From a candidate division WOR-3 bacterium (GTDB taxonomy: Bacteria > Hydrothermota > Tepidihabitantia > Tepidihabitantales > Tepidihabitantaceae): a stretch of 64,000 bases of DNA. Shown in pieces: positions 29,401-32,400 of this stretch. Each line of letters opens with the position of its first letter. Position 1 is the stretch's first letter. Position numbers: made by a program. Location: assembly GCA_965649295.1 (NCBI GenBank), contig CBFGKH010000003.1, forward strand, positions 96,001 to 160,000. The letters are read 5' to 3'.

Positions 29401-32400
29401 TACCATGTTATCCGAAAGCTGCGGTGTCTTGCCGACCCACTGGGGTAAGTTCGAGTCAACAAAGCAGACCGGGCAATAGCAGTTCGGGCATACCTGACGA
29501 CAGGCATAACAGCGAATGCAGCGGCTCACGTCCTGCGACAACTGCTGCCAGCGTTCATCGGCCGAGAGCCGCTCGAACTCGGCAAGCCGGTCGGTCTCGG
29601 GCTCGTGCTCCGGCACCCGCTCACCAATCATCTCGTCGAAAATAACCGGGTTCGGATACCGACAGGTCGTGCAGGAATCGCTCAGACTCCCATTCTCCCG
29701 AATCCCCTCGCAGCCAACACCAAGAATCAAGAGCTGCTTCCGATCGAGCTGCCGTTCCTTGACAAGGCTGAGGATTGAACGCAAGTCGCAGCCCTTGGCG
29801 ATAACCGCGACCTTGCCGCGGTGTTTCACTTTCTGCAGATAGTTGGCAATGTTATGCCCGCAGCGGTCGTCAAAGATAAGGGTGTCAGCCTGCGCCGGCG
29901 TCGTAACAAAGGCAGGCTGGGCAACGCCCAGCGCTGTCTCGCGCCAACCGACAACCATCGCCACTGCCTGCTGTTCGAGCAGCTCACGGCAGCGCTTGCG
30001 CAGGGCCTCGGTGCGATTCACTCGAACGGCTCCTTGACCATTCGCCGATTTGGGCCGAGCTGTCGAACGCGCTCGGTCACCTCCCGCACGACCGTGGCGA
30101 AGCGCTCGCCCTCGGCCGCCGAAACCCAAGAGAAACTCACCCGGCTTGGTTCAATACCGACAAACTCAAGCAAGTCGTGCAGCACTGCGAACCGCCGCCG
30201 CGCAACATAATTCCCGGTCAGGTAATGACAGTCACCCGGATGGCAGCCTGAGACCAGCACACCGTCTGCACCATTCTGGAGTGCCTTGAGGATGTAGAAC
30301 GGGTCAACGCGGCCCGAACAGGGAACACGGATGACCCGAATGCTGGCAGGGTACTGAATACGCGAGATGCCAGCTAGGTCAGCGCCAGCGTACGAACACC
30401 AGTTGCAAAGAAAAGCAACTATCTTCGGCTCGAAACCGGTCGTGCTGGGAGCTACTGGCTGAGGCTCGCTGGTGTTCATTATAGAACTAAGGAACGGGAT
30501 TATAGCGGCCAGGACTGCTGCTGTCTATCTTTCCGAACCGAACTGCTAGCGGACGATAACAGCCTTGGTTTTGCCGCCGTCCGGCCGAACCAGGAAATAA
30601 ACTCCAGTGCCGGCAGCCGCAGTCCGACGGCCGACGACGTCAAACAAGACAGAAGACGACAGATCCTGTCCGAAGCTTGCTTTTGCCCCGCGCTGCACCG
30701 TTAGGGTACGCTCCTCAGCAATACCGACCATGGTATAGAATATCCGCAACCGCGGCATATAGTTGCGGGGAGTGCCGGTCGGTGCGGTCGCGGTAGTTGC
30801 GTGTACTGCTCGGTTGCCGACCGTGTTGTAGCCATAGACATAGACCGAGTTGTTGTCATCACCCTGCCAACGGTATTCGATGATAAGATTCTCGATCCCG
30901 TTGTAGCTGAACGGATAGTCGAAAGCAAACCCGGCCCAGACATCAATCTGCCAGTCGATTCTCATCGTATCCGGTGGCACGGCGACTGCCGGCTCGCGAC
31001 CGGTGTAGTTGTCGGCAAATGTCGCTCCCAGCTCGGTAGCAGTGGTGTGACCAAGCCAGATACCTGAGTTGTAGAAGATGCCGTGATCGTAAACATCCGA
31101 GCCGCAGAGGAGCTGAATCGAGTCAATCCGGCAAGGGCCAGGCAGCTCGGTGGCAAGTACCAGAACCTGGTACCGTGTTCCGTTGTATCAGCCGCCGCAA
31201 TAGGGTACGTTGAGCAGCAGCGTGCCACCCGCCCCAAGCTCAACGAACTCAGCTGCAGCCGGCACGACGAGTAGTAGCAGAACCAGTGCGGTACGCATAG
31301 TTCAGATTACTCCGCCGTCCGCGGTGGTCAAGATTGGTCGCAGTTTGACACCTACTCAGGCGTTCCCTATCATTCGGCGTGCCGCGCGGTCTTGTGATAA
31401 TGCCCACCTACAACGAAGCGGACAACGTCGAGCGCATCATCCCGGTCGTGCTCGCGCAGTCGCCCGAACTCGACGTGCTGGTCATTGACGACAATTCGCC
31501 GGATGGAACCGGTGAAATCGTTGAACGTATGGCCCGGTCCGAACCGCGCATCCATCTGCTGCGCCGGCCTGGCAAGCTGGGACTCGGCACCGCCTATGTC
31601 CTCGGATTCCGCTACACCATCGAGCACAACTACGACTACTGCTTCGAGATGGACTCCGACTTTTCCCATCCACCTGAGAAAATACCGGAGATGATTGCCC
31701 TGCTCAAAGACTACGACCTCGTCATCGGCTCTCGCTACTCCGACGGTATCTCGGTCGTCAACTGGCCGATGAAACGCCTGCTGCTTTCGTATTTCGCCTG
31801 CACCTATGCCCGAATTGTTACCGGTTGCCCGGTGCGCGACCTGACCGCTGGCTTCAAAGCCTACCGGACCGACATGCTGCGGAAGCTGAACCTCGACTCA
31901 CTCAAGGAAGATGGCTACGGCTTCCAGATTGAGATTGTCTTCCTCATCTGGCGCAAAGGTGGCCGCATCAAGGAAACTCCAATTGTCTTCACCGAACGCC
32001 GGGCTGGTGTTTCAAAGATGTCGAAGCGGATTATCCGGCGAGCGTTCTTCTTGGTACTGCGGCTACGACTGCAGCGCATCTTTAGCCACAGCTAGTCCCC
32101 ACTTTGTTGACAACCAACAGTCGGCGGCTACTCTCGGTCAGATGCTGATTCGCGCTGTCAACCTTACCAAGTCCTACGGCACTAAGACGGTGCTGAATTC
32201 GGTGAGTCTCGCCATCCATCCCGGCGACAAAATCGGACTGGTTGGTCCCAACGGTTCAGGCAAGACAACGCTTCTGCGAATTCTCGTCCGCGAGCTGGAG
32301 CCCGATGACGGCGAGCTACTTTTCTCCGGTGAACCCGAGATTGGCTACGTCCGCCAGACCATAACAACCGCAGAAGACGTTACGGTCCGGTCCGCCCTGC

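Follow-up and report, generated by a model that had tools for sequence, protein, structure and literature searches.

A candidate family of exported selenoproteins carrying a Cys/Sec pair on a predicted jelly-roll module in a candidate division WOR-3 bacterium

The stretch of DNA analysed here (the window, 64 000 nucleotides from a candidate division WOR-3 bacterium) carries a 250-codon frame interrupted by one TGA, and we are confident that this frame as a whole is best explained as the gene of a 250-residue exported selenoprotein. The core reading proposed in the genome-wide survey's note, an uncatalogued exported selenoprotein family with a Cys/Sec pair, is thus supported. We demonstrate a conserved TGA, coding constraint on both of its sides, a covarying hairpin and the presence of the Sec machinery in the genome, and also the fold of the protein and the C-terminal domain (CTD) of type IX secretion (T9SS) cargo in its relatives; the family matches no Pfam or NCBIfam model. 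The first four of these observations are the grounds on which we infer that selenium is inserted at codon 37, and the sequence data make it highly probable that this TGA is read as selenocysteine.

The locus and its reading frame

The single TGA lies at positions 31188–31190 of the minus strand, as codon 37 of a 250-residue frame (30546–31298, minus strand), in the context NVPYCGG-U. The features of the locus are as follows.

30546..31298 (-): read-through CDS, 250 codons and a TAG stop, with TGA codon 37 as predicted Sec; the orthologs agree
31251..31298 (-): signal-peptide-like N-terminus, codons 1–16; MR, a hydrophobic run and PAAA before EF
31188..31199 (-): CGGU motif, codons 34–37 (TGC GGC GGC TGA); neither Cys34 nor Sec37 varies among 17 aligned orthologs
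31188..31190 (-): in-frame TGA, predicted Sec codon; conserved across the ortholog, phylum and metagenome sets
31156..31174 (-): SECIS-like hairpin, stem GGUACCAG/CUGGUACU of 8 bp with the 3-nt loop GUU; encodes R-Y-Q-V-L-V-L
31104..31106 (-): Cys65 codon; invariant in the CxxU clade, absent from paralogs and CxxC forms
30729..31250 (-): predicted jelly-roll beta-sandwich body, residues 17–190; AF2 pLDDT 97–99, structural matches with Z 9.8–11.3
30549..30671 (-): shortened C-terminal tail, residues 210–250; alignable with the final strands of the T9SS CTD in orthologs
30546..30965 (-): gene-caller gene of 139 aa, from Met112 to the stop

Translated with table 11, only the tail of the frame is open (30546..30980, 144 aa from a GTG). 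The called gene g00669 corresponds to Met112–Arg250 of the read-through frame and is, as the survey's note had it, the tail of a 250-aa ORF. The note had also reported that the database homologs are called short, and this holds in a library of 1.84 billion proteins, where all eight close single-domain representatives begin after the TGA, at query residue 46–110. Gene callers truncate every member seen, so that nothing in databases marks the family as one of selenoproteins. The absence of a known domain from the window's copy was likewise borne out, since its protein gave no Pfam or NCBIfam family at E<=1. Finally, a literature search in a limited collection found no paper describing the family.

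Selenocysteine machinery and conservation of the TGA

The genome encodes a tRNA-Sec (72.9 bits against a cut-off of 47; anticodon tca according to ARAGORN), SelB (345 bits), SelA (576 bits) and two copies of SelD, each with one TGA. SelA is present in 42 of the 44 genomes of the family Tepidihabitantaceae, including all 14 that hold the gene, and also in the three outside metagenome-assembled genomes (MAGs) labelled as other phyla that are considered below.

In the 44 genomes, the 15 best matches (E<=8.3e-47) contain exactly one TGA each, and of the next 14 (E 3.1e-18 to 5.4e-11) 13 have no stop and one has a single TAG. These counts and the spread over seven genera are those of the earlier note; its 15 genomes, however, are really 14, because G005 holds two copies. 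Over 272 genomes of the phylum, the TGA occupies this position in all 18 matches with E<=6.6e-35, and it is found in all three Sec-type loci from the MAGs labelled as other phyla. In metagenomes, 39 of 40 loci have the TGA and none has Cys there, even though one search pattern demanded Cys; this set was found partly through the peptide encoded by the hairpin, which biases it towards that peptide, and it overlaps in part with the genomes, some loci coming from the same populations. The Sec-type lineages that conserve the TGA share only 27–37% identity. Moreover, TGA-bearing orthologs occur in a further class of the phylum (G256–258) and in MAGs deposited under the titles Coatesbacteria, PVC group and Candidatus Sabulitectum, so that the family is not restricted to Tepidihabitantaceae, as had been proposed.

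A reassigned code, with TGA read as Trp or Gly, was ruled out, because TGA is also an ordinary stop codon in these genes (7 of 15 orthologs terminate in it) and because the Trp of the paralogs stands at the Cys34 position and not at the Sec position.

Coding constraint before and after the TGA

In 11 pairs, pN/pS ranged from 0.00 to 0.43 over codons 17–36 and from 0.12 to 0.66 over codons 38–106, and in all four regions examined entropy was highest at the third codon position. Purifying selection on the 20 codons that precede the TGA is thus at least as strong as in the remaining gene. In 14 of 15 orthologs a start codon precedes the TGA by 33–37 codons. Behind the TGA, the window first offers an in-frame start at codon 107. 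This start is not conserved: gene callers begin other copies at a Met in position 52, and the window's residue there is Leu.

These results bear on the alternative in which the TGA is a true stop, with a short upstream ORF followed by a separate gene, a decayed gene, or readthrough independent of SelB. The gene callers do cut here, as the eight truncated representatives illustrate, and one copy (L036) combines a broken hairpin with a frame-broken C-terminus. Nevertheless, we regard a true stop as very improbable, given the selection on the 20 codons before the TGA, the lack of a conserved start behind it and the persistence of the TGA across lineages as divergent as those above. In addition, residues 17–111 form five strands of the sandwich in the AF2 model (pLDDT 97–99), so that the called tail of 139 aa would amount to less than half a domain, with no signal peptide. 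T9SS cargo requires a signal peptide, and the only one predicted here lies upstream of the TGA.

A SECIS-like hairpin downstream of the TGA

A bacterial SECIS is a stem-loop that directly follows the UGA and has a G in its small apical loop (as described in parts of PMC1088965 and PMC9312934). The locus has such a structure, GGUACCAG-GUN-CUGGUACU, with an 8-bp stem and a GUN loop, beginning 13 nt after the A of the UGA. The survey's note had described the same 8-bp hairpin as perfect and 16 nt away; its sequence stands, the distance is corrected to 13 nt, and one of the pairs is G-U.

Judged by sequence comparison, the hairpin is selected as an RNA. Its core pairs fully in 17 of the 18 phylum orthologs, and double changes are seen at three core pairs among 44 distinct sequences (GC in 35 and AU in 4; UA in 34 and CG in 4; CG in 42 and UA in 1). 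Natural variants of the stem include UAU/AUA and CAC/GUG. The covariation score was 0.124, compared with 0.087 in shuffles, none of 500 of which scored as high, and registers shifted by 1–3 columns pair in only 15–49% of the cells. The Val codon GTA, which accounts for 2% of 267 Val codons in the rest of the ortholog sequences, is used at the stem position in 11 of 14 cases, and the three other cases are all compensated; the Val codon of the loop is unconstrained (GTT 4, GTG 5, GTA 1, GTC 4). In the homologous stretch of 14 non-Sec paralogs, 2–7 of the 8 positions pair, with a mean of 4.5. The AT-rich orthologs L053–55 keep the GC-rich stem unchanged, and the Coatesbacteria and Sabulitectum copies have a hairpin of another sequence at the same place.

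The stem owes part of its conservation to the protein, as the earlier note had cautioned, R42, Q44 and L46 being conserved throughout the superfamily; in the non-Sec relative L118 (PYGNQN...RHQVLVL), seven of the eight stem positions pair. The 56 nt that follow the UGA are not unusually stable in folding energy (z = -0.11 relative to shuffles), and an Rfam search of 30900–31350 at E<=10 returned two chance matches only, to a microRNA and an lncRNA. When the genome G000 was scanned for a TGA followed by CAGGTNCTG in an open frame, 12 matches were obtained, the credible ones being only selD copy 1 and the 250-codon gene; a match resembling a VPGU selenoprotein turned out to lie upstream of a TM1266-family gene. 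The apex CAG-GUN-CUG is common to the 250-codon gene and to only one of the two selD copies. The locus offers a clean worked example of a SECIS within a coding region, in which four things allow selection at the RNA level to be told from selection at the protein level: rare codons frozen in the stem, a freely varying loop codon, compensatory changes and the comparison with paralogs.

Variants of the motif and Cys-containing forms

The CGGU motif had been described as invariant in four aligned orthologs, but the 15 close matches display CG[GTS]U, with 12 CGGU, one CGTU and two CGSU. The Sec alone is constant across the 60 TGA-bearing genes and loci; the GG pair is not, and the first Cys is missing once (SGSU in L111) and stands one residue later in the GCUG form. 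This last form, found in the Sabulitectum-labelled L077, places adjacent Cys and Sec residues (G-C-U-G) in the same loop.

Among the close orthologs, none with Cys in place of Sec was found, which is unusual because nearly all selenoproteins have Cys homologs (according to parts of PMC13188914). To this extent the 'no Cys-form' claim of the survey's note is valid; it does not extend to remote relatives, since three CxxC homologs exist (P0106, P0121 and L059, at about 30% identity). They form a clade with the GCUG Sec form (SH-aLRT 99), and the trees did not resolve how the CxxC clade joins the main CxxU clade. A homolog search with the CxxC form P0121 returned only itself.

The note had further proposed that Cys and Sec were gained together. 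However, the first Cys is present in 10 of 105 aligned homolog stretches, eight of which have no Cys at the second position, and L111 has Sec with Ser in place of Cys; a joint gain is not supported. A third residue, Cys65, is invariant in the CxxU clade alone; the CxxC forms, the GCUG forms and the paralogs lack it.

Predicted fold of the body

In the AF2 model the protein is all-beta and the body is a galactose-binding-like jelly roll, without a thioredoxin fold around the CxxU. The beta-sandwich body announced by the note was thus recovered, with pLDDT 97–99 and jelly-roll structural matches. In a wide search with VIA-align, the best structural matches were jelly-roll binding domains (Z 8.8–11.3, rmsd 3.2–3.5 A over 135–154 residues). 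The overall fold is shared with the galactose-binding-domain-like jelly rolls 4ci7 (the lectin-like domain of Cwp84) and 7tog (the N-terminal CBM of the acetylxylan esterase PbeAcXE), and further likeness was noted to the PHR domains 3gbw and 3no8, to the Bxb1 tail tip (9d93) and to the phi812 baseplate (9euf). This likeness is one of fold only: identity is 5–10%, Pfam and PDB sequence profiles show no kinship for the body, and none of these jelly rolls is a selenoprotein. Foldseek against the PDB gave weak matches only (best E 2.5e-4, TM about 0.4), and a sequence profile search of the PDB matched the C-terminal tail and not the body.

The loop P-[YF]-C-G-x-U...R-x-Q is the most conserved loop across the whole domain superfamily, and the Sec-bearing loop is therefore probably the ligand site of the module, as predicted from sequence conservation. 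In the AF2 model, the CGGU motif makes a tight turn between strands 27–34 and 40–47. Such a position would suit a selenenylsulfide that serves as a permanent cross-link, stabilising only the beta-hairpin turn in an otherwise ordinary surface lectin, without any substrate chemistry. It would also be in line with the paralogs, which most often have Trp at the Cys34 position (19 of 105 stretches); since they do without any Cys there, the fold itself has no need of the Cys/Sec pair. We nonetheless consider this explanation improbable, because a plain disulfide would suffice, whereas the costly Sec is kept in 60 of 60 TGA-bearing genes and loci, and because L111 (SGSU) retains Sec without its partner Cys.

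Predicted export and type IX secretion

The window's copy and its orthologs have an N-terminus, read by eye from the sequence, composed of MR, a hydrophobic run and AxA. At the other end, Por_Secre_tail or FlgD_ig exceeds the Pfam cut-off in 9 of 16 other orthologs, and a profile of the family matches gingipain CTD chains with E 0.0035–0.006. The window's own tail, of about 40 residues, gave no Pfam or NCBIfam family for a T9SS CTD at E<=1; in the AF2 model it has strands at 217–219, 232–237 and 243–248. The T9SS-type CTD named in the survey's note is therefore a property of the family, and was not detected in this shortened tail, which we nevertheless suppose to be still working as an export signal. 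The genome encodes SprA (445.8 bits, cut-off 200), and a C25 peptidase with a FlgD_ig tail is encoded within the window.

Compared with T9SS cargo with a type A CTD (PF18962; RgpB 5ag8/5hfs), the family shares a signal-peptide-like start, a passenger, a linker and a C-terminal beta-sandwich tail; it differs in that its passenger bears a predicted selenocysteine and that the window's tail is below detection. When the ESM Atlas was searched with the database paralog P0044, only T9SS-tail clusters were returned.

Proposed mechanism and function of the Cys/Sec pair

Translation would start at the ATG at 31298 and yield a product of 250 residues. At UGA codon 37, the 8-bp hairpin, situated inside the coding sequence, would recruit SelB with Sec-tRNA(Sec), and selenocysteine would be inserted. 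The product would cross the inner membrane through the Sec translocon, because of its predicted N-terminal signal peptide, and would fold as a galactose-binding-like jelly roll; in most members of the family the T9SS CTD would then direct it to the cell surface or to the medium. We tentatively propose, as the likeliest of the functions considered, that Cys34 and Sec37, perhaps with Cys65, constitute a reversible selenenylsulfide centre facing outwards from an anaerobic cell. There it could reduce an extracellular substrate such as a disulfide, sulfane sulfur or polysulfide, or trap it covalently. The fold is of the binding-module type and not that of an oxidoreductase, which counts against a redox function.

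Alternatively, the same selenoprotein may use its Cys and Sec as a site for a soft metal or metalloid (Hg, Cu(I), As(III) or Ni), in capture, sensing or detoxification, a function that we consider rather unlikely. Both CxxU and Gly-Cys-Sec-Gly, the latter known from mammalian thioredoxin reductase, are classical redox motifs too, Cys65 is missing from the CxxC and GCUG forms, and no metal-resistance or transport genes adjoining the gene are conserved. On the other hand, a metal site would agree with the binding-module fold (CBM32, the Cwp84 lectin-like domain and phage receptor-binding parts; Z 6–11), and the invariance of Cys65 in the CxxU clade alone would suit a site with three ligands. It would agree as well with the adjacent Cys-Sec of the Sabulitectum form, several CU-motif selenoproteins being catalogued as metal-binding in Table 1 of PMC13188914, and with the statement in the same source that metals take part in about 70% of the ligand interactions predicted for selenoproteins.

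More broadly, several lineages of uncultured FCB-type anaerobes could possess a lectin-like surface module, delivered by type IX secretion, whose conserved binding loop has become a selenolate centre (CxxU or GCUG). We put this forward as an uncertain possibility; if true, it would amount to a selenium-based extracellular device for capture or redox chemistry, with elemental sulfur, polysulfide or a soft metal as examples of its target.

The neighbours of the gene are not conserved across orthologs. An operon link to Mvh/Hdr-like genes was ruled out, because the gene is followed by mvhD in no copy other than those of the window, L024 and L025, the neighbours being different elsewhere, and because a promoter-like site lies between the two genes.

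Comparison with known selenoproteins

With the CxxU and UxxC selenoproteins in Table 1 of PMC13188914 (SelW-like, AhpD-like, glycine reductase A and DsbA/DsbG-like), the family shares a UGA with a stem-loop directly behind it whose small apical loop contains a G. It also has in common with them a Cys at a distance of two residues from the Sec and a genome with tRNA-Sec, SelA, SelB and SelD. In contrast to these catalogued families, it has a jelly roll instead of a thioredoxin-like or AhpD-like fold and no Cys-for-Sec ortholog in its main clade. A thioredoxin-like fold is present in most characterised selenoproteins (section 7 of PMC13188914). Moreover, no Pfam or NCBIfam model matches the family, whereas each of the families examined from Table 1 has such an identifier; at E<=1 there was no match to the Pfam, TIGR and NF models of the 119 families and subfamilies catalogued in that table, cd and PTHR entries lying outside this search.

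Extracytoplasmic Sec is also known from the multihaem cytochrome selenoproteins ExtKL (Table 1 of PMC13188914) and from MccSep of sulfur respiration (part of bioRxiv 10.1101/2025.11.18.688581), which have other folds and cofactors. A selenocysteine in an exported fold of the binding-module type would widen the chemistry expected of selenium at the surface of anaerobes. The Gly-Cys-Sec-Gly centre of mammalian thioredoxin reductase is matched by the G-C-U-G of L077, while the window's protein has CGGU; in the reductase this centre is located on the flexible C-terminal tail of a flavoenzyme, and in L077 on an internal loop of a predicted secreted beta-sandwich.

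Reading frame and gene call

The features of the gene, predicted to encode an exported selenoprotein, are as follows.

30546-31298, minus strand: read-through coding sequence of 250 codons with a single internal TGA
31188-31190, minus strand: TGA (codon 37), in the peptide context NVPYCGG-U-YNGTRYQVLVL
31156-31174, minus strand: hairpin GGUACCAG-GUU-CUGGUACU, 13 nt past the TGA, with 8 pairs including one G-U

With translation table 11, the open reading frame is the tail alone (30546..30980, 144 aa), and the called gene of 139 aa extends from Met112 to the C-terminal end. Neither Pfam nor NCBIfam gave a match at E<=1 for the window's protein. 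Judged from substitution patterns, both flanks of the TGA are coding: pN/pS in 11 sequence pairs was 0.00-0.43 on the upstream side (codons 17-36) and 0.12-0.66 and 0.11-0.51 on the downstream side (codons 38-106 and 107-197, respectively), and the third codon position was the most variable in each gene region compared. A start codon lies 33-37 codons 5' of the TGA in 14 of 15 orthologues, often with an in-frame stop directly before it. The N-terminus, read by eye from the translation, is signal-peptide-like (MR, a hydrophobic run, then PAAA|EF). In the AF2 model of the protein (mean pLDDT 89.8, pTM 0.75), strands 17-21, 27-34, 40-47, 56-65 and 71-85 are part of the sandwich (pLDDT 97-99). Translation beginning only at codon 107 or 112 would therefore leave out more than half of the domain and, judged from the sequence, the sole signal-peptide-like segment as well.

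Conservation of the TGA and Cys-bearing relatives

Among 44 genomes of the family, the best 15 matches (E<=8.3e-47; 14 genomes, 7 genera) contain exactly one TGA each; 13 of the next 14 have no stop and one has a TAG. Extending the search to 272 genomes of the phylum added three matches from another class (G256-258; E ~1e-35, 35-37% identity), again with one TGA each, and the next three (E ~1e-21) are without it. Scanning a single genome for each species yielded three further TGA forms, with 27-33% identity, in MAGs labelled as other phyla; SelA is present in all three MAGs.

Further TGA forms
PFCGHU: MAG labelled Candidatus Coatesbacteria
PFCPGU: MAG labelled PVC group
PFGCUG (L077): MAG labelled Candidatus Sabulitectum

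Of 40 related loci in a metagenome collection, some from populations also represented among the genomes, 39 carry a TGA at the Sec position; none of the 40 has Cys there, though one of the two search patterns demanded it. The residue between Gly and Sec is variable (G, S, T, N, A, I, H). In one metagenome locus (L111, SGSU), Ser replaces the partner Cys without loss of Sec or the hairpin. These organisms still use TGA as an ordinary stop: it terminates 7 of the 15 orthologues. One compared genome (G005) has two full gene copies; ∼1.8 kb upstream of one of them (L026) lies a 38-residue N-terminal match with its own TGA (G005:C324:1294-1407, E 3.9e-5).

To describe the residues at positions 34 and 37, we used the 105 aligned stretches that cover both positions, from the 150 best representatives. 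Trp is the commonest residue at position 34 (19 stretches), and Cys is found in 10. Cys at both positions occurs in two of the 105 (P0106 and P0121), and the homologous locus L059 is a third CxxC form. These forms are 29-30% identical to the window's protein and share a layout of signal peptide, x-V-E-x-G and then N-x-P-F-C-G-x-C; their genomes also contain SelA. In a quick ML tree, the CxxC forms group with the GCUG Sec form in one clade (SH-aLRT 99), and therefore Sec and Cys alternate within that clade. The main CxxU clade comprises 18 Sec rows and 4 non-Sec rows (SH-aLRT 92). Neither of two trees, the second built without four very long-branched paralogue rows, resolved how the CxxC/GCUG clade and the main CxxU clade are related. 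A T9SS tail is missing from the CxxC, GCUG and Coatesbacteria forms (L058, L059, L074, L077 and P0121), which have in its place a common short C-terminal motif, [ST]-[FW]-G-x-[IVL]-K with a few residues after it; this may be a different C-terminal sorting signal.

SECIS-like hairpin and predicted Sec decoding

The hairpin fits the features of bacterial SECIS elements to the extent outlined in two published accounts, namely a stem-loop that directly follows the UGA on its 3' side and whose small apical loop contains G (PMC9312934, PMC1088965). Across the 18 orthologues of the phylum 91.5% of cells are paired. All unpaired cells of the 8-bp core belong to one orthologue, L036 (G032:C81, gene 1501-2202). 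This copy has kept the TGA with a broken hairpin (3 unpaired core cells), and its C-terminal third is no longer alignable, as after a frameshift; either decay of the gene copy or a fault in the assembly may explain this.

In a set of 58 sequences (44 distinct), double changes are found at three core pairs (G-C 35/A-U 4; U-A 34/C-G 4, plus U-G 6; C-G 42/U-A 1). The covariation score was 0.124 compared with 0.087 in shuffles, and 0 of 500 shuffles were as high; when registers are slid, only 15-49% of cells in this set pair. Some of the stem changes replace an amino acid (Tyr by His, Val by Ile, Leu by Ser), with a silent change at the partner position. At the stem position 11 of 14 Val codons are GTA, against 2% of the 267 Val codons in the rest of these genes; the other three are the compensated cases. 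Similarly, the stem CAG and CTG are used in 14 of 14 cases each (72% and 44% elsewhere, respectively), and the Val codon of the loop is free (GTT 4, GTG 5, GTA 1, GTC 4). The AT-rich orthologues of the phylum's other class (L053-L055) retain the GC-rich stem amid AT-rich codons. In 14 non-Sec paralogues, 2-7 of 8 positions pair in the homologous 19 nt (mean 4.5), which is the part attributable to the conserved R-x-Q-x-L peptide. Val45 and Val47, encoded by stem and loop, are invariant in the Sec clade only. RHQVLVL is still encoded in a distant non-Sec relative from a metagenome (L118, match 519-878; PYGNQN..., with neither Cys nor TGA), whose stem pairs at 7 of 8 positions; either this is left over from a former Sec form or it shows the stem to be partly protein-driven. 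In the Coatesbacteria-labelled copy the stem is 10 bp long with a single bulge and the loop is GAA; the Sabulitectum-labelled copy has a shifted 6-bp stem with the loop AGGU. The folding energy of the 56 nt after the TGA is unremarkable (z = -0.11), and the hairpin region has no match in Rfam.

The window's own genome (G000; 100% complete, 19 contigs) encodes a tRNA-Sec (72.9 bits, cut-off 47; anticodon tca by ARAGORN), SelB (345 bits), SelA (576 bits) and two SelD genes with one TGA in each. SelA was found in 42 of the 44 family genomes (41 above the cut-off), including 14 of 14 gene carriers, and the two genomes without it (G042 and G043) have no TGA orthologue; since SelA is nearly universal in the family, this co-occurrence is weakly discriminating. 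The predicted decoding of the codon-37 TGA by SelB at the hairpin is well supported. One TGA-containing selD copy directly adjoins selB (C1:355394-358244), and the other (C1:318451-319377) has a CAG-GUA-CUG hairpin apex resembling the gene's own hairpin.

Fold, domain family and C-terminal tail

In the AF2 model, which was compared with 48,161 chains, residues 17-190 (the body) fold as a jelly roll.

Structural matches (VIA-align)
Bxb1 tail-tip domain: Z 11.3
phi812 baseplate domain: Z 10.5
Cwp84 lectin-like domain: Z 10.3
N-terminal CBM of PbeAcXE: Z 10.3
PHR domain: Z 9.9

Lower matches include many CBM32 and F5/8-type-C modules (Z 5.4-7). The unnamed jelly-roll domain is widespread (436 representatives at E<=1e-3) and occurs singly with a T9SS tail, alongside CBM96, disaggregatase and PKD domains in giant proteins, and in fusions with FGE-sulfatase, Kelch or FG-GAP domains. 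Many proteins of 550-590 aa, such as P0017 and P0026, contain three copies and have no Pfam match; the domain family is large, extracellular and uncatalogued. P32, G35, R42 and Q44 are fully or almost fully conserved in 37 aligned members, and the Cys/Sec pair therefore lies in the best-conserved loop of the superfamily. G25, N30, C34, U37, V45, V47, C65, E89 and Y153 are invariant in the CxxU clade only.

Residues 195-209 form a low-confidence linker in the model, and the tail follows. Among 16 other orthologues, Por_Secre_tail/FlgD_ig was detected above the Pfam cut-off in 9 and below it in 2, and 5 gave no match; the family profile matches gingipain CTD chains weakly. The window copy and its close relatives L024 and L025 have a shortened tail aligning with the last strands of the CTD only, and no Pfam or NCBIfam model matches that of the window copy. 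SprA is encoded in G000, and 3.4 kb from the gene lies probably another T9SS cargo.

34724-38437, plus strand: gingipain-like protein of 1237 aa with Propeptide_C25, Peptidase_C25 and a C-terminal FlgD_ig

T9SS export of selenoproteins is probably not unique to this family. A 2026 review catalogues 119 prokaryotic selenoprotein families/subfamilies, each of which has a model ID in the portions consulted, and it nowhere mentions T9SS, lectin, surface, periplasm or exported (PMC13188914). A full-text search of a limited literature collection found no description of this selenoprotein family.

Proposed function

We propose that the protein may be a surface binding module with a reactive selenolate at its ligand end, based on the conserved-loop position, the redox-type motifs (CxxU in the window's protein, G-C-U-G in L077) and the persistence of Sec even in the absence of its partner Cys. 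G-C-U-G is the motif of thioredoxin reductase. Redox chemistry on, or covalent capture of, an extracellular sulfur/disulfide substrate is a tentative role for the Cys/Sec site. Soft-metal binding at the same site seems rather doubtful, and a purely structural link between Cys and Sec is improbable.

Gene neighbourhood

31379-32095, plus strand: family 2 glycosyltransferase, upstream of and divergent from the gene
26298-30479, minus strand: downstream cluster of mvhD (FlpD, E 1e-56), two 4Fe-4S proteins (one Fer4_22) and an NAD_binding_1/DHODB_Fe-S protein

The gene may be loosely linked to envelope glycan synthesis, a GT2 being nearby in 4 of 18 loci; in L053-L055, GT2 and a DegT aminotransferase lie upstream on the same strand as the gene. 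The downstream cluster resembles a soluble electron-transfer module similar to Mvh/Hdr or a sulfhydrogenase. Only in the window's own genus and the genus of L024/L025, which are the two closest, is mvhD located 3' of the gene. Outside these genera the neighbours differ. We drew no function from gene context. The 66-nt gap between the gene and mvhD contains a promoter-like site (11/12 matches). The 314-aa Fe-S ORF (29185-30129) overlaps mvhD by 112 nt, so its true start is probably further in.
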